A stretch of 64,000 nt of DNA. Source: Minisyncoccota bacterium (GTDB lineage Bacteria; Patescibacteriota; Minisyncoccia; Phycocordibacterales; XYD1-FULL-46-19). The stretch covers positions 29,272-93,271 of the forward strand of contig JBAYKU010000001.1 in the NCBI GenBank assembly GCA_041664425.1, in the 5' to 3' direction. Of the stretch, positions 6,421-64,000 are shown in pieces. Position 1 is the first letter of the stretch. Each line of letters begins with the position of its first letter. The translations under genes were made by a program, and so were the position numbers. The notes under the pieces were generated by a model. That model saw only the letters and a list, made by a program, of their open reading frames with translations, made no database searches and was not told the origin of the DNA.

Positions 6421-6422
6421 AA

Positions 6423-7841: not shown

Positions 7842-7858
7842 CCATTAGTTTTTAAGAT

Positions 7859-7893
7859 AATCACCAGCACGCTTCGCGTGCTGGTGATTTTTT
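7859..7893 (+). terminator. Rho-independent terminator after the pilus operon
   Basis: aatcaccagcacgc-ttcg-gcgtgctggtgatt followed by tttttg. Confidence 0.65.
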
Positions 7894-7907
7894 GTTAGAA
7901 TAGGCCC

Positions 7908-8675
7908 ATGAAAAAACTAATTATCGGCAATTGGAAGATGAACCCCACCAGCCTCGCCGAGGCCAAGAAGATTTATACCGGGGTCAAAACAAAAGTTAGT
8001 GGTTTGCGCAATGTCAGTGTGGCTATTTGCCCACCCACCGTCTATCTCGGTGTCTTTTCTGCTACTTCTAAAGGTAAAACTAGCTTGATGTTGGGCGCCC
8101 AAGACACTCACTGGCAAGAATCCGGGGCTAGTACGGGTAATATTTCACCTTTAATGCTTAAAGACCTAAAAACTAGCTATGTTTTAGTGGGTCATTCTGA
8201 GCGACGGGCGACCGGGGAGACTGATGAACAGGTCAAACTAAAAATTAAAGCTATCCAAGAATATAAAATGACCTCTGTCCTCTGTGTGGGCGAAAAAGAA
8301 CGAGATGAAAGTGGTCATTATTTGGCGGTAATTAAGCGTCAGATTGAAGATGGCCTGGAGGGATTACCTAAAAAAGCGGCTGAAAAATTAGTGATTGCTT
8401 ATGAACCGGTTTGGGCTATTGGTAAGGAGGCTAAGGGGGTAGAGACACCAGAAGGTTTCAATCATAATATGATTTTTATTCGTAAAACTCTCAGCTATAT
8501 TTTTGGTCAGAAAGAAGCTCTCAAAATCCCTATTCTTTATGGTGGTTCTGTCTCTTCTAAAAATGCCGATAGTTTCCTGCGTGAAGGTCGGGCTGATGGT
8601 CTATTGGTTGGCCGGGATTCTTTGACCGCCAGCAGTTTCGTTGAAATCATTAAAATTGCCAATCAAATAAAGTAG
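7908..8675 (+). CDS. tpiA: Triosephosphate isomerase
   Basis: MKKLIIGNWKMNPT with conserved TIM motifs. 255 aa. Confidence 0.9.
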   Translation: MKKLIIGNWKMNPTSLAEAKKIYTGVKTKVSGLRNVSVAICPPTVYLGVFSATSKGKTSLMLGAQDTHWQESGASTGNISPLMLKDLKTSYVLVGHSERRATGETDEQVKLKIKAIQEYKMTSVLCVGEKERDESGHYLAVIKRQIEDGLEGLPKKAAEKLVIAYEPVWAIGKEAKGVETPEGFNHNMIFIRKTLSYIFGQKEALKIPILYGGSVSSKNADSFLREGRADGLLVGRDSLTASSFVEIIKIANQIK

Positions 8676-8683
8676 TTAAAAAA

Positions 8684-9790
8684 ATGAAATTATTAAAAAA
8701 TTTACAAAAGGCTGGTTTAAAAGGAAAGCGGGTTTTGGTGCGGGCTGATTTTAATGTGCCTGTGCGCAATGGTAAAGTGACTGAAGCTATGCGCATTGAT
8801 GAAACCTTGCTCACAATTAAATTTTTACTAAAAAATGGTGCCCAAGTTATTTTAATTAGTCATATTGGTGATGATGGTTCAACGAGTTTGCGACCAGTAG
8901 CCAAATACCTGTTGACTAAAAAGTTATCTGTAAAATTCGTTTCTGATTTTGCTTCGGTTGCTAAAGCTAAGGAGTCTATAATCTTAATGGAAAATATCCG
9001 TCGGTTTGAGGGCGAAAAGAAAAATGATCCTGTTTTAGCTAAACAATTGGCGATGTTGGCCGATCTTTATGTTAATGAGGCTTTTTCGGTTAGTCACCGC
9101 GAGCATGCTTCGGTGGTAGGGGTGCCAAAATTGTTGCCGAGTTATGCTGGTCTGCATTTAGTGGAGGAATTGGATTATTTGAAAAAAGTTTTTAAACCAG
9201 ACTTGCCTCTGGTGATGGTTGTGGGTGGTGCCAAATTTAAAACCAAATTTCCTTTATTAAAAAAGTTTTGTCCCAAAGCTCAAATAGTTTGTGTGGGAGG
9301 TGCTTTGGGCAACACTTTAATTAAGGCTCGAGGTTATGAAGTGGGGGTGTCTTTGGTGGATGACATAACGCCAGAAATAAAAAAAATGGCTAAGAGTAAA
9401 AAAATTATTCTACCCGTTGATTTTGTGGTGACCGGAAAGAAAAAAGGGGATTTCTTTGTAAAAAAGGTGGGAGAATTAACAACGACGGATAAAATTGTTG
9501 ATCCTGGTCCTTCCACCTCAAAACTGTTCGCTGAGAAAATTGCTGGTGCTAAAACTTTGCTTTGGAATGGTCCACTCGGTCTAATCGAAGATGGCTTTGT
9601 TCATGCGACAATTTTTCTCGCTCGCAATATCCCCAAGGGTTGTTTTTCTGTTTTGGGTGGAGGGGATTCAGTTGAAGCTTTACGTCAAGCTAGATTGCTC
9701 AAAAAATTATCTTTTGTTTCCACTGGTGGCGGAGCGATGCTTCAATATTTGGCTACTGGCAAGTTGCCCGGAATTTCTGCTCTGAAATAA
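8684..9790 (+). CDS. pgk: Phosphoglycerate kinase
   Basis: VLVRADFNVP motif. 368 aa. Confidence 0.9.
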   Translation: MKLLKNLQKAGLKGKRVLVRADFNVPVRNGKVTEAMRIDETLLTIKFLLKNGAQVILISHIGDDGSTSLRPVAKYLLTKKLSVKFVSDFASVAKAKESIILMENIRRFEGEKKNDPVLAKQLAMLADLYVNEAFSVSHREHASVVGVPKLLPSYAGLHLVEELDYLKKVFKPDLPLVMVVGGAKFKTKFPLLKKFCPKAQIVCVGGALGNTLIKARGYEVGVSLVDDITPEIKKMAKSKKIILPVDFVVTGKKKGDFFVKKVGELTTTDKIVDPGPSTSKLFAEKIAGAKTLLWNGPLGLIEDGFVHATIFLARNIPKGCFSVLGGGDSVEALRQARLLKKLSFVSTGGGAMLQYLATGKLPGISALK

Positions 9791-15925: not shown

Positions 15926-16303
15926 TTATTCGACTATGTTGGCCAACAGGACTTTCGTCCCGTTTTTCTTCAGACCAAGTTTGTCGGCCGCTTTAGACGA
16001 GATGTCTAAGTCGCGGCCACTAATGTATGGACCTCGATCTTTGATTTCGACTACTAACTGGTAGCCGGTCTCGAGGTCAGTGAGTTTTAGCTTCGTGCCA
16101 ATGGGCAGCTCTTTGTGGGCTGCCGTTGTCGGGTCTTCGGCCCGAAAACTTTCCCCATTGGCCATCCGGCGCCCTTGAAGTTCGCGTCCATACCAGCTGG
16201 TGTTAACCATGGCTGGCGGGAACACTTGATCCATAGGACGGATTTGACCACTATTGATTGAATTAGACGAAATCAATATGGCCAACGTTACCATCACTCC
16301 CAT
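15926..16303 (-). CDS. RlpA-like double-psi beta-barrel (DPBB) lytic-transglycosylase-like protein
   Basis: WYG...TA.GE...TAAH..LP.G..L.....NG..V.I.DRGPY... pattern with an N-terminal signal peptide. Perfect SD AAAGGAGGT upstream. Confidence 0.7.
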   Translation of the reverse strand: MGVMVTLAILISSNSINSGQIRPMDQVFPPAMVNTSWYGRELQGRRMANGESFRAEDPTTAAHKELPIGTKLKLTDLETGYQLVVEIKDRGPYISGRDLDISSKAADKLGLKKNGTKVLLANIVE

Positions 16304-20835: not shown

Positions 20836-20996
20836 AGGATAAGGTCTAAAAATTTTGCCAAATTTTTAAGTAGTTTACCCTTATTTTTAGGCGTTTTTGG
20901 CTGTTTGCTATTGACTTTTATACCTATTTATGCTAATATTGAAGATAGAGTTTTGTCAATTGGAGCCTCTTAGGAGGCAAGCGGAAGGATAGAAAA

Positions 20997-28718: not shown

Positions 28719-28791
28719 AAACGAACTGGTCGAGGGCCAACCTTTAAAAGGTGTGCCGAGTAAAAAGTTTGGTAAGCAAGAGGCTTAAAAG

Positions 28792-32797: not shown

Positions 32798-32858
32798 TAC
32801 CACTACGCCTGCCTGCGCAGGCAGGCAAGGGTTTTAAAATGTTTAAGCTTTCGTTCTC
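32798..32858. repeat. Second copy of the TACCACTACGC...AAGGGTTTTAAAATGTTTAAGCTTTCGTTC repeat, carrying the inserted palindrome CCTGCCTGCGCAGGCAGG
   Basis: Matches 20790-20835. Palindrome at 32809-32826. Confidence 0.5.
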
Positions 32859-33301: not shown

Positions 33302-33353
33302 TTGACTATCCATTTCTACCTAATATTATACACCTAATCGTATAAAAAGTCAA
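33302..33353. promoter_or_regulatory. Back-to-back overlapping promoters: plus strand TTGACT-N16-TATTAT (33302-33329) and minus strand TTGACT-N17-TATAAT (33325-33353) sharing the -10 region
   Basis: Hexamers read directly on both strands. The minus promoter drives the ORF at 33278. Confidence 0.4.
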
Positions 33354-33403
33354 TAGATAACAATCTTCATGTAACACTTTTGTGTCTTTAGAGGCCTAAA
33401 TCG

Positions 33404-49589: not shown

Positions 49590-49649
49590 TTATATCGTTT
49601 CCATCTTTTTTATTTTGTGTTATAAATACCGATAGGAATTGAATATCCG

Positions 49650-50080
49650 ATGGGCGGAGAAAGGAAATACGTATGTTTGTACCAAAGAATGTAACTCTGC
49701 GAGAGGTCATCCGGGCCGTGGTGTCAGGATGTCTTCATCAAGAAGGAGGCTCCTTTCATAGGAGGGAGAAGATGTTCCATTTTCTTATCATGATCATACG
49801 GAAGGAGCTCCACTTGCCTCCCGGAGATCACCTTCATGATGTTGATTTGGAACAACGCCTTGGCTCCAAATCAACGTGTGTTTACGTCTGTATCACTTTG
49901 GCGTAAGATCTAGGTCGTCGGTTGCGAGCGAGGTCCTCTACGGGGGAACTCGCTCATTTGTTTTTATTGGAGTGCTCTGTTTAAAAACCCCGCCGGCTCC
50001 TGCCTGCGCAGGCAGGTTGCCGTGGAGACAACCCGCGTCAGCGGAGCGGTACCCTTCATGGGTATAGGACGCACAACCTG
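49650..50080. other. GC-rich non-coding island with hairpins and repeat-family motifs (CCTGCCTGCGCAGGCAGG at 49999-50016; ACCTGTTTTAGG at 50076-50087)
   Basis: Only short ORFs of low plausibility. Several stable hairpins, e.g. gttgatttgga...tccaaatcaac. Confidence 0.35.
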
Positions 50081-50082
50081 TT

Positions 50083-50592
50083 TTAGGAAAATAGGCGAAT
50101 AGTTTCGGTCACTTCTTCGGCGATACCATCAATACAAGGATAGTTTTTAACTTCACTTTCATCAACCCAGGCAAAATCAGTAAAAGCTCCTGGTTCAGGC
50201 ACAACTTCACCACTGCGATACCTCGCTGCAAATTTGACTAAGACGACGGGGATACCATCGGGCCGAATAAAAGCGTTGCTGTTTATATATTGCAACTTGC
50301 CTTCGATTTCAATGCCAGCTTCTTCATGCGCTTCACGTTTTAATAAATCTTCGACGGCATGTTCAAAATCCAAGACCTCGCCATTGATTCTGGTCGGTTT
50401 AGAGATATTGAGATCCTGCCATTCTAATTTTCCGCCCGGCACTGCCCAACGGCCAGGATGAACTTTTTCTCGTTCGTCGCGCTTGAGGATGAGACATTTC
50501 TGATCGCTATCACGATAGACGACAACATTGGCGACAAAGTAGAAAAGTTTGTCGGTTTTGGCTTGGTCTAAACTGATTTTAGAAGCGGTCAT
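50083..50592 (-). CDS. NUDIX hydrolase
   Basis: Nudix box LLKREAHEEAGIE. Confidence 0.75.
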   Translation of the reverse strand: MTASKISLDQAKTDKLFYFVANVVVYRDSDQKCLILKRDEREKVHPGRWAVPGGKLEWQDLNISKPTRINGEVLDFEHAVEDLLKREAHEEAGIEIEGKLQYINSNAFIRPDGIPVVLVKFAARYRSGEVVPEPGAFTDFAWVDESEVKNYPCIDGIAEEVTETIRLFS

Positions 50593-52269: not shown

Positions 52270-52543
52270 TATGTTAACCCTATTAAGTAAGATTTGACGG
52301 TTATTAATTTTTTTACACTGAATCTTTATTATAGATACATTTTCTACCTATTGCGAAGTTAGTCAAATCTAGACTTTAAATCTTATAAAAATAAAGATTA
52401 AAAGTCTTACTTAGATAGGGTAAATTCTAACATATTTTTTGCCGTTGTTATTTCAATCTGATAGTGGTTAAATAGAGACAGAAGCTCGATCGGGTGTCGA
52501 GTAAGATCTTCAAGGTCAGGCGGAGGTAACCGCAGGAGGTGCC

Positions 52544-53002
52544 ATGAGTACCGAATTGGCCGGATTTGAAGTTGTCGAGGTCGTTGAAAAACCGGACAAA
52601 GCCAAAGAGAGGAGGTATAAGCGTGATACCCAAGAGCTATTTTGGCTCTTGGAAAATTGGGAGAAGGTGGTAGTAACAGCTAAGCCAGGTGGCAAGGTTT
52701 GGTATCGAGAAATCCATCGGATTATCGATTTCAAGCAGTGCTTCCAAGAGCAGTGGGGGTTTGATGCTTTGATTTATGAGATCAGAGTGATCGAGAACCG
52801 TATCGCGATCAGAAAATTGGCGGAGCCACTGGAATTTAGGCCTAAACGGACAGAAGTAGAGGTCCTGTCTTCTGAGACAAAAAAAAGGCTGAGCCTAGAA
52901 GAAAAGCGTAAACGTTATCGCGCCAAGCGCCGAGTAGTCAAAGATCGGCTTAGGCAATTCTGTCATTACCGAGTTTGTGGACTAGCAGCTTGCCATTTCT
53001 GA
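52544..53002 (+). CDS. Hypothetical protein with a Lys/Arg-rich, Cys-containing C-terminus
   Basis: 152-aa ORF with a tandem SD GGAGGTAACCGCAGGAGGTGCC just before the ATG. Confidence 0.5.
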   Translation: MSTELAGFEVVEVVEKPDKAKERRYKRDTQELFWLLENWEKVVVTAKPGGKVWYREIHRIIDFKQCFQEQWGFDALIYEIRVIENRIAIRKLAEPLEFRPKRTEVEVLSSETKKRLSLEEKRKRYRAKRRVVKDRLRQFCHYRVCGLAACHF

Positions 53003-53105
53003 GGAAGGCAGAACTGGTTCAAGTTTGAAGTTATATATCGGGGCCGAACGCATCAAGCGCATTCGGCCTCTTCTTTTTCTTTAATTTTTATGCTATTTTC
53101 TATTT

Positions 53106-54422
53106 ATGGAAAAAAACCAAGAAGCGATGGAAAAATTGGTCTCGTTGTGTAAAAGACGGGGTTTTATTTATCCCTCCTCGGAGATTTATGGCGGTCTGGC
53201 TGGAGTATGGGATTTTGGTCCCCTCGGTGTGGAGCTGAAAAACAATTTAAAAAATATTTGGTGGCAGATGTTCGTCCGCGACCGCGAGGATATGTTTGGA
53301 CTCGATGCGGATATTTTAATGAATGCTAAAGTCTGGGAAGCTTCTGGTCACGTGGCTGGTTTTGCTGATCCACTGACCGAATGTCAAAAATGTCACAAGC
53401 GTTTTCGAGCTGATCAATTAGAGGAAAATAAATGTCCAGATTGTGGTGGGGAATTGGGAGCGATTCGCCAGTTTAATATGATGTTTCGCACTCAGATCGG
53501 AGCGATGGAAGATTCTTCGGCAACGGTTTATCTACGTCCAGAAACTGCTCAGGGGATTTTTGCTAATTTTAAAAACGTCATCGATTCTTTTCATCCGAAA
53601 CTGCCGTTTGGTATTGGCCAGATTGGTAAAGCTTTTCGCAATGAGATCACGCCTCGCGATTTTATTTTCCGCGTCCGCGAATTCGAACAAATGGAAATTG
53701 AATATTTTATTCGAGCCGACGAATGGGAAAAACATTTTGCTGATTGGCAACAATCAGTTCACTCATATATAGAAGCGGTGGGGATTGCCAAAGGCAAGGT
53801 GAGCGAGCTCGAAGTCTCTGGTGATGATCTCGCTCATTATTCCAAGCGGACGATTGATTTTGAATTTGATTATCCTTTTGGCCGAAAGGAACTTTGCGGT
53901 TTGGCTTATCGGACCAACTTTGATTTAACTAAGCATGCCGAACATTCCGGCACTGAGCTTTTCTATTATGATGAAGAAACAAAAGAAAAAACCGTTCCTC
54001 ATGTTATCGAGCCATCTTTCGGAGTAGAAAGAATTGTTTTGGCGACTCTCTTATCCGCCTATCGGGAAGACGAGCTGGGTGGCGAGACTAGGGTCTATCT
54101 GGATTTCAATTTCGCTGTGGCGCCAGTCAAGGTGGCTGTCTTTCCGCTTTTGAAAAATAAACCAGAACTGGTAGCCAGGGCGCGCGAAATTTATGCCGAA
54201 CTGAAGAAAAAAATCTCGGGCAATGTGATGTTTGATGATAATGGTAATATTGGCAAACGCTATCGCCGACAGGATGAAATCGGGACGCCGTACTGTGTGA
54301 CGATTGATTTCCAAACCCTCGAAGATGAGATGGTGACGGTTCGCGATCGCAATAGTGGGGAACAGGAGCGAGTGAAAATTGCTGATTTGGCGGAGCGGAT
54401 TCTGACTGGGGATTTGGGGTAA
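53106..54422 (+). CDS. glyQS: Glycyl-tRNA synthetase (alpha2 dimeric class II)
   Basis: YGGLAGVWDFGPLG motif. 438 aa. Confidence 0.9.
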   Translation: MEKNQEAMEKLVSLCKRRGFIYPSSEIYGGLAGVWDFGPLGVELKNNLKNIWWQMFVRDREDMFGLDADILMNAKVWEASGHVAGFADPLTECQKCHKRFRADQLEENKCPDCGGELGAIRQFNMMFRTQIGAMEDSSATVYLRPETAQGIFANFKNVIDSFHPKLPFGIGQIGKAFRNEITPRDFIFRVREFEQMEIEYFIRADEWEKHFADWQQSVHSYIEAVGIAKGKVSELEVSGDDLAHYSKRTIDFEFDYPFGRKELCGLAYRTNFDLTKHAEHSGTELFYYDEETKEKTVPHVIEPSFGVERIVLATLLSAYREDELGGETRVYLDFNFAVAPVKVAVFPLLKNKPELVARAREIYAELKKKISGNVMFDDNGNIGKRYRRQDEIGTPYCVTIDFQTLEDEMVTVRDRNSGEQERVKIADLAERILTGDLG

Positions 54423-54432
54423 TTTATCTAAA

Positions 54433-54707
54433 CTGCAAAACTTTTTACTCGGCGCACCTGTTTTAGGGTACGGATTTCCCTGGCCCTATGGAATAAATTT
54501 GTTCAAAAACTTTCTTAATTTCAAAACCCAGACCCAAGCCCAACCATTTTGAAATTAAGAAAGTTTTTTTGACAAATTTCGCTTCGCTATTCCATAGGGT
54601 GAACTTAGAAAATCCTGTCCGCCAGCTGGCGGATCGGCCATGCCTGTACAGGCAGGTCGACAGCCTCACGACCCCCTAAAACAGGTGCGCCTTCGACAAG
54701 TTTGCAG
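54433..54707. mobile_element. MITE-like non-autonomous element with imperfect terminal inverted repeats of about 34 bp and an internal long hairpin
   Basis: TIRs ctgcaaaactttttactcggcgcacctgttttaggg / ccctaaaacaggtgcgccttcgacaagtttgcag. Inner hairpin 54484-54599. Shares CCTGTACAGGCAGG and ACCTGTTTTAGG motifs with other copies. Confidence 0.5.
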
Positions 54708-54828
54708 TTTATAAAGTTAATCACATTTTCTCTTGCGTGTTTTTATACTTTTGCTAGACTAAAAAATAGAGATGCTCTTTGTGACGTGGGAATTGTCCCC
54801 GTACTGAGCATTAGGGAGGAACGGCAAC

Positions 54829-55290
54829 ATGAGGAAGACATTGATTGCAGTAGTTTTTACCGCTGTAATGTTGATCGCTTTTGCGTTTGGCCTGCAGGCA
54901 CCACCGGGCATGATGGACAACCAGTTGGCAGTCGCGTCCCCGATGTCTCTCGCGAATGAGGGTATCGTTGGGACGGCAGTGGTATCCGAGGCGATTGGCA
55001 CCTCAGGTAGCAGTCAATTCCTCGATCATGTGGCCTTCGCGAAGGAAGCTATGACGAGCTCGGCTCCAAGCGGCGAAGCAATACTTGAAGGTCGGGAGGT
55101 CCTTCTTCCCACCGAAATTGTCGTTGCTGGTGGTAGCGTCGAAAATGGGGCCAAGGCGAGCACGCTGGCGGAGACTTCCAGAGAAGGTAGTTACCCGCTG
55201 AAGTGTATCCTCGCGATCTCGTCGTCCTCGAACCGCGCGGCATACCCGGCCGACGTAGCGGAGGTTAGCCATCCTCTGAGATATGTTTAA
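54829..55290 (+). CDS. GC-rich (about 55-58% GC) secreted hypothetical protein
   Basis: 153-aa ORF with strong SD GGGAGGAAC, signal peptide MRKTLIAVVFTAVMLIAFAFG, and composition unlike its neighbours. Confidence 0.45.
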   Translation: MRKTLIAVVFTAVMLIAFAFGLQAPPGMMDNQLAVASPMSLANEGIVGTAVVSEAIGTSGSSQFLDHVAFAKEAMTSSAPSGEAILEGREVLLPTEIVVAGGSVENGAKASTLAETSREGSYPLKCILAISSSSNRAAYPADVAEVSHPLRYV

Positions 55291-55350
55291 CGGCTTGGCG
55301 CGCTGACAGTCGCGCGCCGTGAAATTTCCCCGCCCTTTTGGGCTCACACC

Positions 55351-55390
55351 GGCACCGTCTCCGCTTTAGGAGAGGGTGCCTGTTTTTTTT
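55351..55390 (+). terminator. Rho-independent terminator
   Basis: ggcaccgtctcc-gcttta-ggagagggtgcc followed by T10. An additional hairpin ggcgcgc/gcgcgcc at 55297-55318. Confidence 0.65.
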
Positions 55391-55417
55391 GCCTTTATGA
55401 GCCAAGTGTTATATAAT
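55389..55417 (+). promoter_or_regulatory. Promoter TTGCCT-N17-TATAAT located 6 nt upstream of the ftsH ATG
   Basis: -10 TATAAT at 55412-55417 and ATG at 55424. No SD possible. Confidence 0.4.
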
Positions 55418-55423
55418 CGCGGC

Positions 55424-57340
55424 ATGTCTAAAGAAAAAAAGCCAAAAAATAAGGGAAATTTGCAGATTTTGGGGCAGTTTGGCAGCCAAATCTTGTGGGG
55501 CTTACTGATCCTACTTTTTGTAGTGAGTGTCTTTTCGGCGGTCAATGATCAGGTTAAAAAAATCCCTACCATCTCTATTTCTGAATTGGCCCAAAAAATC
55601 TCTGCTGATCAGGTGAGCCTGATTGAGGTCAAAGGTGGGACCCTGACTGTTACGGGGGTGGATAAAAAAGTTTGGACCGCTAAGAAGGAAACTGAATCAT
55701 CTCTGTCCCAAACCTTGATCAATTATGGTGTTAAACCAGAAAATCTCAACAAAGTAAAAATTGATATCCAGAGTGATGCCAGCTCTAGTTTCTGGTTAAC
55801 AACCTTTTTGCCATTACTGATTCCGGTTATTTTTATTATCTTGATTTTTTGGTATTTGTCTCGGCAGGTCAAAGGTGCTTCAATGCAAGCTTTCTCTTTT
55901 GGTCAATCGCGAGCGCGGATTGTTTTTCCTGATGACGGCGGCGAGAAAGTTACTTTCAAAGATGTGGCTGGTGTCCGTGAGGCTAAAGAAGAGTTATTGG
56001 AGATCGTTGATTTTCTGCGTAATCCAAAAAAGTTTTTAGATATTGGCGCCCGCATTCCCAAGGGTGTACTGCTCATGGGTGCGCCAGGTACAGGTAAGAC
56101 TTTGTTGGCCCGAGCCGTGGCGGGGGAGGCCAAGGTGCCATTTCTCTATCTCTCGGGTTCAGAATTTGTGGAAATGTTTGTGGGAGTGGGTGCCTCACGC
56201 GTGCGTGATTTATTTAAACTAGCAAAAGATTCGGCTCCCGCTATTATTTTTATTGACGAGATTGATGCCATCGGTCGCCATCGTGGTTCTGGTATGGGTG
56301 GTGGCAATGATGAGCGCGAACAAACCTTGAACCAAATTTTGGTGGAAATGGATGGTTTTGAACCTAATGAAAAATTGATTGTCATGGCGGCTACTAACCG
56401 ACCAGATGTCCTCGACCCCGCCCTGTTACGTCCTGGTCGTTTTGATCGCCGAGTGATGCTGGATTCGCCGGATAAGAGAGATCGTGAAGAAATTTTATTG
56501 ATCCATTCTCGCCATAAGCCGATGGGTCCGGATGTTAATATGAAAGTGATTGCCGAACGTACCCCGGGTTTTTCTGGTGCTGATTTGGCTAATGCGGTCA
56601 ACGAAGCGGCAATACTAACCGCTCGTGAGGCGCGAACTGAAGTTAGTCAATACGATCTCTTGCGTTCGATTGAAAAAGTTATGCTCGGACCGGAACGTCG
56701 CAGTCATATTCTCTCAGCTAAAGAAAAGCGAATTACTGCTTATCATGAAATTGGCCACGCTCTGCCCGCCTCCGTGCTTGAATATTCCGATCCAGTTCAC
56801 AAAGTCTCGATTATTTCTCGTGGACGAGCCGCTGGCTATACACTCAAACTGCCACTCGAAGATCGCAAACTTCAGTCGCGTAAAGAGTTTCTCGACGACC
56901 TAGCAGTTTCGCTCGGCGGTTATGTAGCGGAACAAATGGTCTTTGGTGATATAACGACTGGCGCTAGCAACGACATCTCTGTCTCGACTGATCTGGCTCG
57001 AGCGATGGTGACCAAGTATGGTATGAGTGACAAACTCGGACCAGTAGCGATTGAAACCTCATCCCATTTGAGTTTCTCTGGTGGTTTAAATGAATCCGCG
57101 GTGTCGGAGAAAACTTCAGCGATTGTTGATGAGGAGGTTTCGCGTTTGATGAATGAAGCGATGGAGCGAGCCAAAGAAATTTTAACCACTCATCGGGCCG
57201 TAATGGACAACATGGCCGAAGAATTGATTCGTACCGAAACTCTGGAACGCGAAGAATTTGAACGACTCTTGATTCTCAATGGTATCAAGCCTAAGAGAGT
57301 AGAAGAATCGGAAGGTTTGACTCTTGCACCGATAGCTTAA
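55424..57340 (+). CDS. ftsH: ATP-dependent zinc metalloprotease FtsH
   Basis: [18 protein letters not shown] Walker A, HEIGHAL zinc motif. Start taken at MSKEKKPK. Confidence 0.9.
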
Positions 57341-57447
57341 TAATTGTAAGTTAAAAGTGCTATGCGCCTGTAGCCCCGACGTACGAAGTGGTCGGGATCC
57401 CGACTGAAGCGTCGGGACTCAGATGTTTAGATTTTGAAAATTAAATT

Positions 57448-57521
57448 GCGCCTGTAGCTCAGCTGGTTAGAGCACGGAGCTTATACCTCCGCGGTCCCTG
57501 GTTCGAATCCAGGCGGGCGCA
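57448..57521 (+). tRNA. tRNA-Ile with anticodon UAU
   Basis: Cloverleaf: acceptor gcgcctg/cgggcgc, D-arm gctc...gagc, anticodon stem cggag/ctccg with loop cTTATAc (anticodon TAT), T-arm cctgg-ttcgaat-ccagg. No encoded CCA. Confidence 0.75.
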
Positions 57522-57527
57522 CTAATT

Positions 57528-59678
57528 TTACTCAAAATGTGTATCTTTCTTTTTTCCGGCGAGACGCTGGCGGAGGAGAGGGTAGTTTTTTAGTTCGGGA
57601 TCGGTGGCGACGATTTTCTGAGCTTCGGTCCGCGCTAGTTCGACCATCTTGATATTTTTCAGGGCTTCCATCCCGAGGTCAGACAGTCCCCATTGTTTTT
57701 CGCCGGATAGAGAACCAGCGCCACGTAGCGATAAGTCGAGCTCGGCTAGTTCGAAACCGTTTTTGGCTTTGACTAGAGCTTTCAGTCGGTCCAGCGACAC
57801 GGCGCTTTTGGCTTCACTAAAAACAAAACAATAAGCTTGGTGGTTGCTCCGGATAACACGACCGCGGAGCTGATGGAGCTGGGCTAGGCCAAAACGCTCG
57901 GCGCCTTCGATGACGATGATAGTGGCGTTGGGCACATTGACGCCGACTTCGATGACCGAGGTGGCGACCAGAATATCGATTTTGTGGTCGGTAAAATCAG
58001 TCATCACTTCTTCTTTGTCTTTTGGTTTTAATTTGCTGTGGACTAAACCGACGGTAAATTCTGGAAAAATTTTTTCTTGCAGGCGTATAGCTTCGGCTTT
58101 AGCCGACTTGGCCATGATCGCCATTTCTTTGGTGGGATCTGGTTCATCGATACGAGGGCAAATGACGTAGGCTTGCCGGCCGGCCTGTAATTGCTCTCGG
58201 ATTTGTTCGTAGGCAAGGTCGCGTTTATCGGGGGCAATAATTTCGGTGATGATTGGTTTGCGGCCGGCCGGCATTTCGTCGAGGAGAGAGAGGTCGAGGT
58301 CACCATAAATAGTCAGGGCGAGGGTGCGAGGAATAGGAGTGGCTGTCATGGAGAGTAGATGGGGAACTTTATTATCTTTATGATCTTTGCGAGTGAGATT
58401 GGCGCGTTGCATCACTCCGAAGCGATGTTGTTCGTCGATGATGACCAACGCCAAGTTTTTGAACTTCACTGATTTTTGAATCAACGAGTGAGTGCCGACG
58501 ACAATGGGGATCTGACCAGAGGCCACCCACTTTAAGAGAGTGGGGCGAGAGATGTGAGTATGTTCTTTGGGAGAAATTTTGGACGGGAATTTTCGACATT
58601 CTGAACCGGTCATCAGGCCGACCTGGATGCCGAGATATTCGAAATATTTGATAAATGATTCGAAGTGTTGGCGAGCGAGAATTTCGGTCGGGGCCATATA
58701 GGCGACTTCGTAGCCGGCCGAGACAGCAGCAAAAGCGGCCGCCGCAGCCACGGCGGTTTTACCAGAACCAACATCACCCTCGATTAAGCGAGTCATTGGT
58801 TTGTTTTTAGTAAAGTCAGCGAAGATTTCCTCAATGGTTCTAGTTTGCGCAGAAGTCATGGCAAAAGGAAAGCGAGCAAAAAACTTTTTTAAGCCAGTCT
58901 TATTTACTTCTAAACTAAAACTAGGATTACCTTGATATTCTCGTCGGCCGATCAGGCGTTCTAGTTGGAGAAAGAAAACTTCTTCAAAGGCAAAACGCTT
59001 GCGGGCCGCGAGGGCGTCACTTTCTCGGTGGGGAGTATGGACCCAAACGAGAGCGGTTTTAAGAGTGGGCAGATTGAATTGTTTTAAAATAAAATCAGGC
59101 AGAGGATCGACTAATTCGTCGAGCAAACTGTCGGTTAATAGTTTCGAGATTTGATGATAGAACCAGCCGGAAGTTAAACCTTTAGTTTCGGGATAGACGG
59201 GGATGAGGGAGCCGTCGATAAAACCACTACCATTGTCGGCAAAGACCGATTGTTTTTTGTCGTACCACGAACCGCCACCGGTGCCGATGGTGGGGTTGGT
59301 CATATAGAGAGAACCGGATCGCTCCGTGACTTTGCCGGAAAATTGATAGTAGCTACCCTCATGGAGTTTTTTAGCCAGGAAGGCTTGATGGAACCAAACG
59401 ATTTTTATTTTTCCCGTCTCGTCCTCGACGGTGGCGGTGGCCATGGGGATTTTTTTGAAATGAGCTTTTTTGATTTCGGCTTTGAGGACTCGGGCCGAGA
59501 TGACAGCTTCTTCGCCAACAGCCAAATCTCCAATTTTTTTAAATTGACCGGCGAAAGCGTAGCGGTTTGGAAGATGGAAAAGCAAATCCCGAGCCGTTTT
59601 ATAACCAATGCGTTCGAGCGCTTCTTTGTGGAGAGGATTGAGGCGAGATATTTTTTCGATAGGAGTATCAGGAGACAT
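57528..59678 (-). CDS. recG: ATP-dependent DNA helicase RecG
   Basis: GDVGSGKT Walker A, DEQHRFG motif II, N-terminal wedge domain. 716 aa. Confidence 0.9.
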   Translation of the reverse strand: MSPDTPIEKISRLNPLHKEALERIGYKTARDLLFHLPNRYAFAGQFKKIGDLAVGEEAVISARVLKAEIKKAHFKKIPMATATVEDETGKIKIVWFHQAFLAKKLHEGSYYQFSGKVTERSGSLYMTNPTIGTGGGSWYDKKQSVFADNGSGFIDGSLIPVYPETKGLTSGWFYHQISKLLTDSLLDELVDPLPDFILKQFNLPTLKTALVWVHTPHRESDALAARKRFAFEEVFFLQLERLIGRREYQGNPSFSLEVNKTGLKKFFARFPFAMTSAQTRTIEEIFADFTKNKPMTRLIEGDVGSGKTAVAAAAAFAAVSAGYEVAYMAPTEILARQHFESFIKYFEYLGIQVGLMTGSECRKFPSKISPKEHTHISRPTLLKWVASGQIPIVVGTHSLIQKSVKFKNLALVIIDEQHRFGVMQRANLTRKDHKDNKVPHLLSMTATPIPRTLALTIYGDLDLSLLDEMPAGRKPIITEIIAPDKRDLAYEQIREQLQAGRQAYVICPRIDEPDPTKEMAIMAKSAKAEAIRLQEKIFPEFTVGLVHSKLKPKDKEEVMTDFTDHKIDILVATSVIEVGVNVPNATIIVIEGAERFGLAQLHQLRGRVIRSNHQAYCFVFSEAKSAVSLDRLKALVKAKNGFELAELDLSLRGAGSLSGEKQWGLSDLGMEALKNIKMVELARTEAQKIVATDPELKNYPLLRQRLAGKKKDTHFE

Positions 59679-59943
59679 ACTTTTTGTTTCGGTAGTAAAG
59701 AAAGATATCGATTAAAACCATCAAACCATTCAAAACATATAAATAGATGACAAAATCAAAATTATAGAAAATTTTATGTAGGGTACCAGCAATATAGCCG
59801 GCAAAAATTAGCCACAAGAAAATTACGCTTTTTCCAGCATCAGATCTCGAGGTGTATGATTTATAAATAGAGAACGGCCAAGAGACGCCAAAACAAAGTA
59901 GGAAAATAATCTCAAAAGGGGACATATAGACTAATCCTAGCAA
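59668..59943 (-). CDS. Small three-TM membrane protein, possibly SemiSWEET/PQ-loop-like
   Basis: 91 aa with three hydrophobic helices. Overlaps the recG start by 11 nt. Family assignment is tentative. Confidence 0.35.
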   Translation of the reverse strand: MLGLVYMSPFEIIFLLCFGVSWPFSIYKSYTSRSDAGKSVIFLWLIFAGYIAGTLHKIFYNFDFVIYLYVLNGLMVLIDIFLYYRNKKYVS

Positions 59944-60021
59944 ATATAATTTTTATTCAAAAGAAAACGACCGATTCCGCGCAAGCGCAGAATCGGTCGT
60001 GTGATCCAGGGGAGAGGGAGA

Positions 60022-61080
60022 TCAGCCTTTGCTGCTGGAACCGAGGTTGCCGTAGAAACGGAACCCACTTGATCCCTTTAGGTAATCGCCGGTGATGGTG
60101 ATCACCACTTTGTCGTACCCGGCAGGCAAAGAGACGTTGGGCCAGCAACCGTTCTGGTCGTTGACAGAATAGTCTCCCGACCATTGCCACCAGCAGATCT
60201 GCGTCAGTGAGCCGTTGGCTTCAACTGCGTTGACCTTGATGTTCGGGTTGCCGATGTCGGTAACTGCAAAGTATGCCGACTGACCCTTCAGGTCAGCCAT
60301 GTAGACTTTGGCTGCTCCTCTGTCGATTTGCCCGTCGAACTGCTGTCCGACGAGGTTTTGCCATTTGTCGTTCTCGAACAGGGGAACGACATTGCCAGCA
60401 TGGGTGACGCTGATGACCGAAGAATCCGTTCCAGAAACGTTTTGGTCCTGAGTATGCCCGACAGCGATGGCGAGGCCAGTGGTTCGGTCAACGATCTGGT
60501 ATGCCTGATTCATGCTCGGGTTGTACCAAAGCGTGAACCCGCCGTTATTCTGGTCGTACGCGCCGACGAAACCCTCACCGTCAACCCGAACTTCCAGATT
60601 GTTTGAGTTGATGCCGTCCGGGCAGGTGAAGGTAATGAACTTGCTCTTGCTGTACGGGTACATGACAACCTTGATGGATTGCCCGTCTTTGAGTAGGTCG
60701 GTATCGAACCGACCATATCCCGTTCCTTCGCCTTGTTCGTTGACACCCCTCAAGTAGAGGGAGAACTTGGAGCAAATCCCTTCCGCGTTCTGAGGTAGGC
60801 CGGGCAGGCCGTTCGGGCCAGTATCCACGCTCTGGTTGTTGATGACCAATTCGTGGATGAAACCATTCTTGTCCATTGCGAAGTCGCCGTAGACGTAGGT
60901 TTCGTAGCCGTTCACTCCGACTCGGTTAAACCAGAAACTGCCGGTGTACGACACCGCTGGGTTGGTAACCAGCGCCGCCGCCGCCAGCTCCGAATTGATT
61001 GGAGCCTCGTCGGCAAACACCACCGCCGTAAAGCCGAAGAAAAACAACATAACCACAAGAACAACAAGATGCTTTTTCAT
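60022..61080 (-). CDS. GC-rich secreted hypothetical protein (352 aa)
   Basis: Signal peptide MKKHLVVLVVMLFFFGFTAVVFA. About 52-54% GC, versus about 43% for the window. Confidence 0.5.
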   Translation of the reverse strand: MKKHLVVLVVMLFFFGFTAVVFADEAPINSELAAAALVTNPAVSYTGSFWFNRVGVNGYETYVYGDFAMDKNGFIHELVINNQSVDTGPNGLPGLPQNAEGICSKFSLYLRGVNEQGEGTGYGRFDTDLLKDGQSIKVVMYPYSKSKFITFTCPDGINSNNLEVRVDGEGFVGAYDQNNGGFTLWYNPSMNQAYQIVDRTTGLAIAVGHTQDQNVSGTDSSVISVTHAGNVVPLFENDKWQNLVGQQFDGQIDRGAAKVYMADLKGQSAYFAVTDIGNPNIKVNAVEANGSLTQICWWQWSGDYSVNDQNGCWPNVSLPAGYDKVVITITGDYLKGSSGFRFYGNLGSSSKG

Positions 61081-61135
61081 TTGAAATCCCCTTCGTTTTT
61101 TCTGCGTTTAGTCTCACCACCATTGGTGATACTTA

Positions 61136-61417
61136 CTACATGACCGAGACCTGGTGGGTCTTGGTCGAAAAACCTAGTGACTTGAGTTTATTGGTTGTTT
61201 CCGGCGATGGGCCAGGAACTACCTTGATGGTCTTTCTGTCCTTTTGGGGGACAGCGACGGCATCTTTGTGACTGCCGTCTGGGGCGATGATAGTCACCGG
61301 TTTCGACAAGGTTGTCGTTTCCGGCTTTTGACGCAGTGTCGATAGAGCCAGAAAGACCCCAATCAATACTGCTACTACCATCAAAAGCACCCACATCGGG
61401 ATCTTCTCTTTCAGCAT
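61136..61417 (-). CDS. Small membrane-anchored hypothetical protein
   Basis: 93 aa with an N-terminal TM. Elevated GC. Confidence 0.4.
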   Translation of the reverse strand: MLKEKIPMWVLLMVVAVLIGVFLALSTLRQKPETTTLSKPVTIIAPDGSHKDAVAVPQKDRKTIKVVPGPSPETTNKLKSLGFSTKTHQVSVM

Positions 61418-61626
61418 TTCTCTTCTCCTCCGTTGTCAATCCACCCTCGGGGTGGTTCCAAAACAATAAAAGGCCACATGGCCTTATCTTCCGTCATTTA
61501 TTATATACCTAAATTGACAAAAAGTCAATAGTAAATGATAAAATATGGCCAATAATAAGGGTATAATTTAAAAGAAGCCATAAAAATAGACTTTTTGCTG
61601 CAAATTGAATAGAATATGGTGAACGG

Positions 61627-61718
61627 GGAGAGGTGGCTGAGTGGCCGAAAGCGCCTCACTGCTAACGAGGTAGGGGTTTTAAAGCCCCTCGAGGGTTCGA
61701 ATCCCTCCCTCTCCGCCA
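61627..61718 (+). tRNA. tRNA-Ser (anticodon GCU) with long variable arm and encoded CCA
   Basis: Acceptor ggagagg/cctctcc, anticodon loop cTGCTAa, variable arm gtaggggttttaaagcccctc, T-arm gaggg-ttcgaat-ccctc, then gCCA. Confidence 0.85.
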
Positions 61719-61817: not shown

Positions 61818-62756
61818 TTATTTGCCACGATTCTTTTTTCTTGCAGCAATTTCTGGCACACCTTGACCAGGAGTTATGATAGTTTGGGCTTTCACATTTT
61901 TGAGCCTTTGTACTAATTTTGCCATTGATACACCTGTACGTTTTCTTTCCTCTATCATATTCGCAATATCGTCTCCAGATATGGTTGTTCCCTTATCTGC
62001 CTTAATCATTATCCCTACGTTAAAATCAGCGTTTTCTTCGTCGTCGGTATATCTCATTCCATCAATCAATTCTTCTGGGGTCATATGGTCAAAAACCGTT
62101 TGCATTCCTGCACCGTGAATATGTTTAGCTTTTAGTCGATCAAACTTGTCATTTTTAACGGCAAAAGAAAATTTATCATAGTCATCAAACGGGATGTGAA
62201 ATCCATTGTAGTTTATAATGACATTGCCATTAACTTTCATTTGAAAATGAAAGTGCGGGACCCTACCTTCCTGGCGATCTTTATGGCCAGCCAAATCTCC
62301 TTGGGAGCACGAGAATGACCATTCAAGATGTTTATACTTTATTGTTTCTTCAATTACCTTTGACGAAGATTTTTCTTCAACCAAATCGTTGATGTTCTTA
62401 AATGGTTTCTCGCAATTTGCAACCCAGCGCAAATAAGCTTCTAATCGGTGGAAACCTTTGTTTTTGAATAACAGAGGGAAATGTTTCTTTTTAAATCCTT
62501 TCGGTTTAAGTAGCCAATGGAAACATGGTTTTCTCTCAGAGAAATGTGTAAGTGGATAACCACAATAATTGCACCTTCCTTTTAATAAGGCAGTTTTTAA
62601 TTCTTGAAAATCCCTCTCATTTATCTGGTGCTCTTTCTCGCTTTCTTTGGCCAGTTGCTCTGGAGACAAACTGTTGAGATAGTCATTAAGTTTATTAAAT
62701 CTCTCATCTTCATCCATAGACGAAACCATTAAACTCTCTTTGGGAAGATTATTCAA
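61818..62756 (-). CDS. Hypothetical protein co-transcribed with the serine recombinase (C-x2-C...C motif)
   Basis: 312-aa ORF with a 4-nt overlap with the recombinase stop. No recognised family. Confidence 0.45.
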   Translation of the reverse strand: MNNLPKESLMVSSMDEDERFNKLNDYLNSLSPEQLAKESEKEHQINERDFQELKTALLKGRCNYCGYPLTHFSERKPCFHWLLKPKGFKKKHFPLLFKNKGFHRLEAYLRWVANCEKPFKNINDLVEEKSSSKVIEETIKYKHLEWSFSCSQGDLAGHKDRQEGRVPHFHFQMKVNGNVIINYNGFHIPFDDYDKFSFAVKNDKFDRLKAKHIHGAGMQTVFDHMTPEELIDGMRYTDDEENADFNVGIMIKADKGTTISGDDIANMIEERKRTGVSMAKLVQRLKNVKAQTIITPGQGVPEIAARKKNRGK

Positions 62757-64000
62757 TTATTTGTCAGGGTCAAGTTTTTATCTTTATAGACAATCCTCGA
62801 TCTCAAGTTCGCTAGTAGCTCTCGTTTCTCGGTAGTTGTGCCTTCCTTGAGAATATACTTGGCATAATTGCGGATGTCGGTTTCTGGATTGGTTATGATT
62901 TTCCCTTTGGCCCCAAGTACCGAACGTTGGAATATATTAAACCTGGCAATTTCTTCTTCCAGTTTTTGTCTCATGCCCAGCTCGTTGATATTTACCTTAT
63001 CGAGGATTTTAAGCAATTCGGTAATTAGTTCCTCTTCTCGGATGTATTTATTTTTGCAGTTACGATCTCTGGCTCGGGAGCATGAATAGTAGATATAACG
63101 ATTGGCTCCGCCACCGACCAATTGTTTCCATTTCTCTTCAGCCGAGATGCCTGAGCCACAATAACCGCAAGTGAATAATTTGGTGAAGGAAAATTCTTTG
63201 GTTTCTCTGACAATCTGATCACGCTTTAATTGAGCCTTGGCTTTTTCAAACAAGTCTTGGTCAATAATTGGCTCGTGTTTGCCGGTATACCAATTACCAC
63301 TTTCTTTGGGATGTTCAAAAACCCCATAATAAAAAGGGTTGTCTAAAATCCTATAAATACCACTTAAGGTTAACGGCTTGTTGCCTCTAGTATAAAAATT
63401 CAATTCAAATTTTAGCCAGTTAAATATCTTTCGGCCGGAGTAATGCTCGTAGGCTACTTTCTCAAACATCTTTTTGATAATTGGGGCTCGGGCTGGATCA
63501 ATTAATATCTGACATTTTTTGTCCATCATCTTTTGATTGAGATACCCCAGTGGGGCCACCCCTGGCCACAGGCCCATCTCGACCCTCGCTCGCAATCCAC
63601 GCTTCACATTTACGCTCTTGTTGTCGTTTTCTAACTTGGCCGTGCTACCAAGGATCATTAACAAAAATTTCTCATTTGGGTTGTTGGTAAATCGCTGACC
63701 GTAAGTCCTGATTTCGTGGAGTTTGCCCGAATCCATCAAATCCACGATTTTGCCTAAGTCCCCAGCGTTTCTTGATATGCGGTCAGGGGCCCAGGTCAGA
63801 ATACCATTAAATTTACCTTGTTTTAGCTCCTCGATAATCTCATTAAAAACTGGCCTTTGCCCGGTCTCCTTAGCCGAATGCGACTCTCGCTTCATTGTCA
63901 CAATCTCTAGATTTTCCCGCTCGGCCAGCTGGAGCATCTCCTTAATTTGGCTATCGATGCTCAAAACCTGCCTTTCCTCAGATTCAGTACTTTTCCTCGC
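62753..64000 (-). CDS. Large serine recombinase (integrase/transposase type). Its N-terminus, including the predicted catalytic Ser region, lies beyond the window end.
   Basis: The frame is open to base 64000. Resolvase-domain motif ...GQRPVFNEIIEELKQGKFNGILTWAPDRISRN, a recombinase domain, and zinc ribbon CGYCGSG...YYSCSRARDRNC. Confidence 0.75.
   Translation of the reverse strand, partial: ARKSTESEERQVLSIDSQIKEMLQLAERENLEIVTMKRESHSAKETGQRPVFNEIIEELKQGKFNGILTWAPDRISRNAGDLGKIVDLMDSGKLHEIRTYGQRFTNNPNEKFLLMILGSTAKLENDNKSVNVKRGLRARVEMGLWPGVAPLGYLNQKMMDKKCQILIDPARAPIIKKMFEKVAYEHYSGRKIFNWLKFELNFYTRGNKPLTLSGIYRILDNPFYYGVFEHPKESGNWYTGKHEPIIDQDLFEKAKAQLKRDQIVRETKEFSFTKLFTCGYCGSGISAEEKWKQLVGGGANRYIYYSCSRARDRNCKNKYIREEELITELLKILDKVNINELGMRQKLEEEIARFNIFQRSVLGAKGKIITNPETDIRNYAKYILKEGTTTEKRELLANLRSRIVYKDKNLTLTNN

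Follow-up and report, generated by a model that had tools for sequence, protein, structure and literature searches.

The 64,000-nucleotide stretch of contig JBAYKU010000001.1 from a Minisyncoccota bacterium (hereafter the window, whose positions are used throughout) contains at 60022-61417, on its minus strand, a GC-rich operon predicted to encode a small membrane protein of 93 amino acids (aa) and a secreted protein of 352 aa. With a probability of roughly 0.6, this operon is native to Paceibacteria, being GC-rich and hypervariable in its secreted product, and not an import from a high-GC host. It would represent the local allele of a hypervariable secreted-protein slot located between tRNA-Ser(GCT) and recG in this Paceibacteria clade, with allele bodies swapped within the gene pool of the candidate phyla radiation (CPR) through homologous recombination at conserved ends. 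The secreted 352-aa product would meet the outside as a binding protein, with the small membrane protein holding or handling it, and its silent-site GC content would be raised by biased gene conversion or by selection for mRNA stability.

A first-pass annotation had singled out this operon, together with a 153-aa open reading frame (ORF) at 54829-55290 and a non-coding segment at 49650-50080, as GC-rich islands and had suggested horizontal acquisition, conceivably from a high-GC host such as an actinobacterium. Paceibacteria are uncultivated and, to our knowledge, little has been established about their attachment to hosts or surfaces. Because it is compact, apparently strongly expressed and seemingly swapped in its product among close relatives, the operon is a good candidate for encoding a molecule in contact with the outside, be it a host, a phage or a substrate.

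The operon, its protein family and its slot

Read along the minus strand, the operon consists of a promoter, a leader hairpin, the 93-aa gene with its own ribosome-binding site, the 352-aa gene and a terminator, forming an autonomous unit of about 1.6 kb that is flanked on both sides by AT-rich sequence. The neighbourhood is one of housekeeping genes (smpB, tmRNA, a NUDIX gene, an S9 peptidase gene, glyS, ftsH, tRNA-Ile(TAT), recG and tRNA-Ser(GCT)). The predicted features of the slot and its flanks are listed below; signal peptides, here and across the protein family, were read from the sequence or the alignment and not called by a predictor.

61627-61718, plus strand: tRNA-Ser(GCT), conserved left flank of the slot, divergent from the operon, with the same arrangement in loci L001 and L096
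61500-61528, minus strand: near-consensus sigma-70 promoter, TTGACT, 17 nucleotides (nt), TATAAT, matching 11 of 12 consensus positions
61460-61485, minus strand: leader hairpin AAGGCC-ATGT-GGCCTT followed by a U-rich run, about 14 nt past the -10 hexamer
61136-61417, minus strand: 93-aa protein with an N-terminal transmembrane helix, a variable Pro/Thr/Lys linker and a C-terminal 'KLxxLGFS..H.V' motif
60022-61080, minus strand: 352-aa secreted all-beta protein (WCW56_00555, 'type A' allele), signal peptide MKKHLVVLVVMLFFFGFTAVVFA/DE, ending ...SSSKG
59967-60000, minus strand: intrinsic terminator with a 15-bp stem (9 G-C pairs) followed by TTTTCTTTTG
59668-59943, minus strand: gene for a 91-aa membrane protein, GC 0.33, overlapping the start of recG
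57528-59678, minus strand: recG, conserved right flank of the slot, RecG identity 87% to L096 and 81% to L098

Neither the 352-aa nor the 93-aa nor the 153-aa protein matches Pfam, NCBIfam or PHROGs, and to that extent the earlier statement that these proteins belong to no recognisable family was correct; the 352-aa protein does, however, have an unnamed family of its own (type A). A word-index search with the 352-aa query returned a single relative (P0002, on the 8.3-kb contig L001), and the same kind of search with a 40-sequence profile returned 4 proteins only, whereas an exhaustive profile search recovered 156 cluster representatives at E <= 1e-3, 91 of them at E <= 1e-10. Most listed members are 330-390 aa long and the alignments span nearly the full protein, the window protein being 23-34% identical to the other 38 aligned members and 57% identical to P0002. 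The named relatives come from Candidatus Vogelbacteria, Candidatus Paceibacterota and an unclassified 'bacterium' metagenome-assembled genome, and every taxonomically named member of the family is Paceibacteria. The family had no hits in viral contigs, phage records or plasmid records, a metagenome scan with a two-sequence family alignment found no relative, and neither the protein family nor the locus was found described in the literature.

Several features recur across the family. An N-terminal signal peptide or lipoprotein signal can be recognised across the family alignment, and the C-terminus reads G-[KR]-G in 50 of 135 full-length representatives, 32 of which end in GGKG; the SSSKG end of the window protein contains K-G but not G-K-G. 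Of 12 related loci checked, 11 (9 with DNA and 2 known from gene tables alone) share with the window a small gene (64-105 aa) upstream of the large one; in L093, none was called. An N-terminal membrane helix characterises the small proteins, most of which also have an 'L..LGF' motif at the C-terminus, a layout found in the window and eight other aligned family loci, with a weak motif in L085 and L091. Furthermore, AlphaFold with a 40-sequence alignment modelled the 352-aa protein as all-beta with a predicted local distance difference test (pLDDT) of 85 and a predicted template modelling score (pTM) of 0.71; the run with a two-sequence alignment (pLDDT 40) was not usable. Foldseek gave no full-length match (TM-score about 0.2, identities 5-12%). 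The resemblance is one of fold only, to the pre-peptidase C-terminal/collagen-binding domains of clostridial collagenase, GOLD domains, domain 3 of botulinum HA70 and the C-terminal domain of the Clostridium perfringens enterotoxin CPE, all of them beta-sandwich binding modules, and it would indicate no more than binding-type all-beta modules. The 352-aa product is probably an abundant cell-surface binding protein that is held or handled by the small membrane protein, and the family alignment together with the confident structure model provides a testable handle on it.

The control region is likewise shared among relatives. Over about 119 nt, the promoter region of the window is 75% identical to L001 and 71% identical to L096, and an equivalent promoter lies upstream of the operon in all nine family loci inspected. 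In each of these nine, when the sequences were folded individually, a hairpin of 6-9 bp with a T-run follows 13-20 nt past the -10 hexamer, with stems that vary among loci (e.g., ATAGGC/GCCTAT and AGCC/GGCT); RNAalifold predicted no structure for the nine aligned leaders, in which MAFFT had misaligned the loops. The hairpin may serve as an mRNA stabiliser or as an attenuator. In the Escherichia coli ompA leader, a 5' stem-loop stabilises the mRNA of an abundant envelope protein, and the operon leader resembles it in placing a short hairpin near the predicted mRNA 5' end of a secreted protein; unlike in ompA, however, a U-run follows the hairpin, so that a leader terminator or attenuator is equally possible. 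At the other end of the operon, a terminator occupies the equivalent position in L001, L096, L094 and L098.

Evidence for exchange of alleles comes from the comparison of the slot among close relatives, which were gathered by a RecG-based scan. The hidden Markov model (HMM) of the type A family was run on 80 RecG loci and gave no match, which led to the non-homologous alleles referred to as type B. In L096 (RecG 87%), the locus is collinear with the window (tRNA-Ser, promoter, slot, recG, tRNA-Ile, ftsH, glyS) and the flanks share 71-84% nucleotide identity, while the slot is occupied by genes for a small protein of 80 aa and a lipoprotein-like type B protein of 268 aa with a GC content at third codon positions (GC3) of 0.81 and the ending GGKG. 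This type B protein matches neither Pfam, NCBIfam nor PHROGs and has no detectable relatedness to the 352-aa family (hhalign probability 4%). The slot of L098 (RecG 81%) carries a type B protein 44% identical to that of L096, with a GC3 of 0.69 and the ending SGKG. By contrast, L094 (RecG 66-79%) has a type A allele 34% identical to that of the window, in the order cassette, gene for a gamma-glutamyl cyclotransferase-like (GGACT) protein, recG, where the cassette denotes the operon (60022-61417 in the window). In L001, the order is tRNA-Ser(GCT), promoter (about 75% identity to the window) and cassette.

The comparison of L001 (type A) with L096 (type B) exposes the mosaic structure. Their tRNA-Ser genes are identical, and identity is 85% across tRNA-Ser, promoter and leader, 77% across the ribosome-binding site and the start of the signal peptide, and 96% across the last codons and the terminator, whereas the gene bodies cannot be aligned. 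The slot is thus occupied in L096, L098, L094 and L001, and it is empty only in the more distant L099 (RecG 65%), in which 144 bp and a homologue of the 91-aa gene separate tRNA-Ser from recG. In relatives with 81-87% RecG identity, the flanks, promoter and leader, signal-peptide start and 'G-K-G-stop' with terminator are kept, and the bodies are 34-57% identical or without detectable homology. Conserved ends around unrelated bodies therefore suggest allele replacement by recombination, and we infer that the slot alleles are swapped by homologous recombination at these ends within the CPR gene pool. Away from this slot, ClpB, cassette and miaA/ParB form one syntenic locus in L087, L089, L092 and the P0018 contig, with rpmG after the cassette in L087 and L089, and there the cassette gene looks vertically inherited in the lineages concerned.

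A more far-reaching proposal, which is regarded here as doubtful, is that the slot is a dedicated site for the exchange of surface proteins, in which unrelated bodies are placed between a fixed head (promoter, leader hairpin, small membrane partner and signal peptide) and a fixed tail (C-terminal G-K-G, stop and terminator). If this were true, the G-K-G end and the small 'LGF' membrane protein would constitute an undescribed surface-anchoring or processing system of the CPR, and intense recombination, with GC-biased gene conversion at one locus, would have left its mark in the silent-site GC, which rises to 0.81 although the genomes have 44-46% GC.

Surface loci that homologous recombination replaces at conserved flanks include the pneumococcal capsule locus (dexB-aliA), the variable regions of flagellins and pilins, and the sap S-layer cassettes of Campylobacter fetus. 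The slot resembles these in its conserved flanks and gene ends, its diverged or unrelated bodies and its secreted or surface product, and differs from them in that no silent donor cassettes, invertase or recombinase were found at the slot and in that the unit is only about 1.6 kb. Recombining surface loci are, moreover, usually AT-rich relative to their own genome, whereas every allele of the slot is GC-rich at silent sites. The cassette also shares with tRNA-linked integrase islands its position next to tRNA-Ser(GCT), its atypical composition and its absence from the distant L099. Unlike such islands, it adjoins the tRNA on the 5' (promoter) side, no integrase or attachment-site repeats were detected, and the promoter region is common to relatives. 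In addition, neither GC-rich coding segment contains an integrase or transposase, nor are there flanking direct repeats of at least 20 nt.

The true integrase-borne island, with a 312-aa protein, a serine recombinase and OLD-like and UvrD-like proteins, is AT-rich and lies on the other side of the tRNA. This 3' island (GC 0.35-0.39) covers 61818-64000 and continues beyond (L002 1-6939). Its part inside the window encodes the large serine recombinase (62753-63964) and the 312-aa protein, for which no family is known; past the window edge follow an OLD-like ATPase/TOPRIM protein that forms a Gabija-like pair with a UvrD-like helicase and, oddly for a CPR bacterium, a Toluene_X protein of outer-membrane type. 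Neither L001 nor L096 has this island at its tRNA. The tRNA-Ser(GCT) gene itself exists in two very different forms at this locus (61627-61718 in the window, 6226-6313 in L001, 1-88 in L096 and 4218-4309 in L099): the window gene is nearly identical to those of the distant L099 and L101, and L001 and L096 share the other form, so the gene seems to have been replaced in one lineage.

Further observations concern the flanks of the slot. The 91-aa protein is a three-helix protein whose gene has the lowest GC of the region; a 62%-identical homologue occurs in L099 and L109, and the GGACT gene takes its place in L096 and L094. A tRNA-Ile with anticodon TAT (UAU), an uncommon bacterial means of reading AUA, lies between ftsH and recG (57448-57522), a position kept in L096-L101. 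Around the -35 hexamer of the operon, a similarity of 33-44 nt (...CTATTGACTTTT...) joins 61499-61563 to two other intergenic sites, one inverted (20876-20919, upstream of a 185-aa ORF at 20997) and one direct (33324-33356), which suggests that 20876-20940, 33324-33356 and 61499-61563 share an upstream promoter element of this genome. Three assemblies of the contig differ by 4 single-nucleotide polymorphisms in 14 kb, none of them in the islands, which is too few for a ratio of non-synonymous to synonymous substitution rates.

Silent-site GC excess and its explanation

The compositional observations of the first-pass annotation were borne out. Against a window mean of 43.5%, the three segments reach 0.50-0.58 in 300-bp windows, with peaks of 0.55-0.58 for 54800-55400, 0.53-0.55 for 60050-61100 and 0.50-0.51 for 49700-50150; the kilobase at 60001-61000 has the highest GC content (0.550) of all 64. 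The ORFs exist as described, with Sec-type N-termini as read from the sequence, and the neighbouring repeats and tRNAs are present (a 241-bp hairpin at 54451-54691, tRNA-Ile at 57448-57522 and tRNA-Ser at 61627-61718). The coding segments have the following GC contents, overall and at the three codon positions (GC1/GC2/GC3).

54829-55290: GC 0.558; GC1/GC2/GC3 0.58/0.49/0.60
60022-61080: GC 0.542; GC1/GC2/GC3 0.53/0.39/0.70
61136-61417: GC 0.507; GC1/GC2/GC3 0.51/0.39/0.62

Over 69 window ORFs, GC3 averages 0.427 (standard deviation 0.078). The 352-aa gene ranks first (z about 3.5) with ordinary GC1 and GC2, and amino-acid bias is therefore not the cause of its excess, which sits at synonymous sites; in the 153-aa ORF, a share of the excess sits at GC2 (Ala/Ser/Gly-rich). 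The dinucleotide signature, normalised for base composition, places 60022-61417 in the top 1.7% of segments of the same size, while 54829-55290 and 49650-50080, both too small for this test, could not be separated from background.

Codon usage sets the cassette apart from other genes of high GC3 in the window, namely infC, rplT, rpsJ, tuf and smpB (0.52-0.62). In infC, rplT and tuf, GC3 is raised only through C-ending codons: the C-ending fraction of two-fold pyrimidine-ending codons (C2) is 0.68-0.71, the G-ending fraction of four-fold codons (G4) is 0.06-0.08, and GCT, GGT, ACT, CGT and CGC are favoured. The cassette combines the highest C2 (0.80) with a G4 of 0.28-0.30, and GCG, CCG, TCG, ACG and CTG are three- to six-fold enriched relative to translation genes (0.29, 0.45, 0.31, 0.21 and 0.31, against 0.07, 0.14, 0.06, 0.05 and 0.08). 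Arginine is encoded by CGT and CGC in the translation genes, whereas CGC is absent from the cassette. This pattern is a general rise of silent-site GC and not codon adaptation. The window maximum of G4 (0.34) belongs to the 153-aa ORF.

The excess is not confined to the window. When the GC3 of the large gene was compared with the mean of its neighbours, the difference was positive in all eleven loci scored: +0.27 in the window, +0.34 in L001, +0.13 in L085, +0.09 in L087, +0.13 in L089, +0.15 in L091, +0.05 in L092, +0.15 in L093, +0.13 in L094, +0.29 in L095 and +0.31 in L096 (type B). GC3 is high evenly along the cassette genes. In a rough control, 25 of 1414 ORFs from about 150 Paceibacteria loci were outliers in GC3 (above the locus median by >0.15 and 2.5 robust standard deviations), and 3 of these 25 were cassette genes. 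The L001 homologue P0002 has a GC3 of 0.76 against 0.70 for the window gene, in genomes that are both at about 0.42. The identities of the two genes at the first, second and third codon positions (0.67/0.77/0.51) follow the pattern of coding sequence, and fourfold sites are 42% identical against 28% expected from composition; silent sites are thus near saturation, yet GC3 stays at 0.70-0.76. Either a force maintains it, or both genes were recently imported from GC-rich sources into the same slot behind the same promoter. Unrelated alleles and copies elsewhere share this bias, and a class-specific force is therefore the simpler reading; likewise, an excess in every slot allele and in members at other loci makes it a property of the gene class and not the scar of import from a high-GC host.

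Recombination-linked, GC-biased gene conversion and selection for the stable, GC-rich mRNA of a strongly expressed gene could each produce this excess. Lassalle et al. (2015; PMC4450053) reported a higher GC content in recombining bacterial genes, irrespective of codon selection, which would fit a frequently exchanged locus. Selection for a stable mRNA could alternatively lie behind the combination of a 5' hairpin and a GC-rich body. The cassette resembles the genes of that study in its silent-site excess, independent of preferred codons and here even contrary to them, and in the evidence for exchange of alleles at the locus; it differs in that the excess is large (+0.3). A silent-site GC excess in unrelated alleles and in eleven genomes would offer an unusually clean case in which to set biased gene conversion against mRNA-level selection in reduced genomes.

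Other origins of the composition were weighed against a native operon. Recent acquisition of the GC-rich segments from a high-GC organism outside the CPR, such as an actinobacterial host, with a composition not yet ameliorated, would account for the atypical GC, GC3, codon usage and dinucleotide signature, for the location of the 153-aa ORF inside a lineage-specific insertion, and for the tRNA-Ser next to the cassette, an integration hot spot with a serine-recombinase island on its 3' side. Such a donor is nonetheless highly improbable. The named relatives of the 352-aa protein are all Paceibacteria, every genomic context is CPR-like, phage, plasmid and viral collections gave no matches, and relatives share the promoter and leader, which look native in type; the GC3 excess is common to all alleles, among them the ones in the ClpB synteny of L087, L089 and L092, and persists in the window and L001 copies near silent-site saturation, and the 153-aa ORF has no homologue, which is unexpected if it derived from the well-sampled Actinobacteria. 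Nor is the high-GC host put forward by the first-pass annotation supported by the 57%-identical homologue with a GC3 of 0.76, found on a related contig with the same tRNA-Ser(GCT) and promoter. The first-pass annotation had named close homologues of similar GC in related CPR genomes as grounds for refutation, and on these grounds a foreign donor of the main island fails. Of its proposed horizontal acquisition, what stands is that the 153-aa ORF lies in an insertion that relatives lack and that cassette alleles appear to be exchanged among lineages; foreign import of the main island does not. The case calls for care in genome scans: a gene rich in GC, atypical in its codons and adjoining a tRNA looked foreign, yet is probably native to the gene pool of its lineage.

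Ordinary translational selection, by which a very highly expressed operon would have adopted the codons preferred by its genome, is improbable as well. The GC3 of infC, rplT, tuf, rpsJ and smpB, the C2 values, raised in infC, rplT and tuf and highest in the cassette, the near-consensus promoter, the strong ribosome-binding sites and the leader hairpin would all agree with it, but highly expressed genes prefer T or C at four-fold sites and shun the G that the cassette uses freely, and they employ the CGC that it avoids. Somewhat less unlikely is the repeated import of alleles from GC-richer Paceibacteria, or from an unsampled GC-rich mobile element of the CPR, with no force specific to the locus. 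Alleles appear to have been replaced, the dinucleotide signature is atypical, the genome represented by L092/L007 has a GC3 of about 0.60 and a family gene at 0.65, not far from the 0.70 of the window, and the loci with the top type A excesses (window, L001 and L095) fall off the near-linear relation between gene GC3 and genome GC3 followed by the other family loci. On this account, however, the donor must always have been GC-richer than the recipient (11 of 11 differences are positive), two unrelated protein types in the slot are both GC3-rich (0.81 for type B), and the syntenic copies at the ClpB locus show an excess as well; neither an element nor a donor was found in searches of metagenomes, viral contigs and phage records.

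Several points weigh against the interpretation as a native operon of exchanged alleles. The comparison covers a small number of loci, some of them related to one another and most on short contigs, with several neighbour sets of only 2-6 genes, and the assignment to a lineage relies on the named members of the family, the rest carrying no taxonomy. The mosaic could in principle stem from extreme divergence of the bodies with constrained ends; the 96%-identical 3' junction adjoining an unalignable body argues otherwise, although it is a single junction. The atypical dinucleotide signature would also fit repeated import from GC-richer Paceibacteria, and in L092, with its genome GC3 of about 0.60, the cassette excess is just +0.05. 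Moreover, the apparently strong expression of the operon is judged solely from the quality of its promoter, ribosome-binding sites, leader and terminator, and the 153-aa ORF lacks a homologue and owes its coding status to sequence signals only.

Comparable silent sites were also seen outside the cassette. A gene for a small DPBB protein (RlpA-like lytic transglycosylase domain) at 15926-16303, on the minus strand and opposite to its neighbours, has a GC3 of 0.56, a G4 of 0.31 and a C2 of 0.62, and a 43%-identical homologue of its product is encoded in L100. In L089, the cassette lies within a wider GC-rich stretch (4684-9062) in which pyrF, pyrE and a hypothetical gene have a GC3 of 0.56-0.58, against 0.32-0.46 nearby; compositional mosaicism in such genomes therefore extends beyond the cassette.

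The glyS-ftsH insertion and the non-coding spacer

The two other GC-rich islands comprise, with the adjoining palindrome, the following predicted features.

54451-54691, no strand assigned: near-perfect palindrome of 241 bp resembling a miniature inverted-repeat transposable element (MITE), with perfect 16-nt terminal inverted repeats GCGCACCTGTTTTAGG
54829-55290, plus strand: 153-aa ORFan (WCW56_00530) with Shine-Dalgarno sequence AGGGAGG, a signal-peptide-like N-terminus and an Ala/Ser/Gly/Val/Glu-rich body
55291-55388, plus strand: two GC-rich hairpins, the second followed by T8, at the right end of the insertion and directly before the conserved ftsH promoter
49640-50085, no strand assigned: hairpin-rich spacer (GC about 0.50) between the stops of convergent nucleotidyltransferase-like and NUDIX genes

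The spacer between glyS and ftsH measures about 55 bp in L005 and 51 bp in L096 and L097, against about 950-970 bp in the window. The insertion, of about 0.93 kb, contains the palindrome, the 153-aa ORF and the two hairpins, and homology with L096 restarts at 'TTTTTTGCCTTTAT...TGTTATATAATCGC', just ahead of the ftsH promoter. In the 153-aa ORF, AGGGAGG stands at a spacing of 7 nt (ending 8 nt before the ATG) and the predicted N-terminus consists of MRK, a hydrophobic core and AFAFG/LQA. Its sole match among 5.8 billion proteins was itself; no relative was found in any fetched locus, and the ORF is absent from L096, L097 and L005. A weak tblastn match in L080 (E 0.02) was rejected, as it spans the junction of an unrelated 291-aa ORF and a 423-aa ORF. 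On this comparison, the segment with its predicted gene is a recent lineage-specific addition that arrived or arose within the insertion.

It is possible, though on balance unlikely, that the 153-aa ORF is not a gene and that the inserted DNA at 54700-55400 has no coding function, being either a remnant or an RNA, with the ORF a by-product of high GC. The missing homologue, the low-complexity sequence, the ORFs of 114 and 80 aa on the opposite strand and a dinucleotide signature indistinguishable from background would be in keeping with this. A predicted gene, by contrast, would better explain the Shine-Dalgarno sequence and signal-peptide-like N-terminus, the coding-typical order GC3 >= GC1 > GC2 and the two hairpins straight after the stop, the second with T8; an RNA would sit less well with the lack of an Rfam match and a fold z-score of only -2.5.

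The 241-bp palindrome has a DNA fold of -70.9 kcal/mol (z = -12.9). Related copies occur just downstream of the cassette in L001 (8022-8193) and L096 (1648-1686), and a solo palindrome end lies at 28741-28770 in the ribosomal-protein region of the window. Like a MITE, the palindrome is small, has terminal inverted repeats and occurs in several copies among related genomes; no obvious target-site duplication was seen when its flanks were read. A similar case may exist on the other side of glyS, where the spacer to the S9 peptidase gene (52270-53105, 837 bp) contains a 152-aa ORF (52544-53002) without a family match. In L005, the S9 peptidase gene and glyS are adjacent, their longest ORFs overlapping by 17 nt, and the absence of the spacer there marks 52270-53105 as a second lineage-specific insertion near glyS.

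The description of 49650-50080 as non-coding agrees with the searches: it has no Rfam match, and its two short ORFs match neither Pfam, NCBIfam nor PHROGs. Across the full window, Rfam at the gathering score returned only tmRNA, tRNAs and chance matches to palindromes, and at E <= 10 on 54400-55500 and 49650-50080 it gave chance-level matches of CRISPR repeat and plant microRNA models to palindromes. Single-sequence fold z-scores of the islands were modest (-2.2 to -3.7), and an nhmmer search with the non-coding island as query returned no copy from the fetched loci. The spacer at 49640-50085 contains several hairpins, one of them terminator-like on the plus strand, and both a cluster of palindromes like repetitive extragenic palindromic (REP) elements and a lineage-specific small RNA are possible. 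The GC-rich, 18-nt palindrome CCTGCCTGCGCAGGCAGG occurs in three intergenic regions (32808-32825, 49999-50016 and 54639-54656), one copy having a central TA, and these three palindromic sites give 6 matches over two strands, where 0.18 would be expected; the palindrome is a possible REP-like element.

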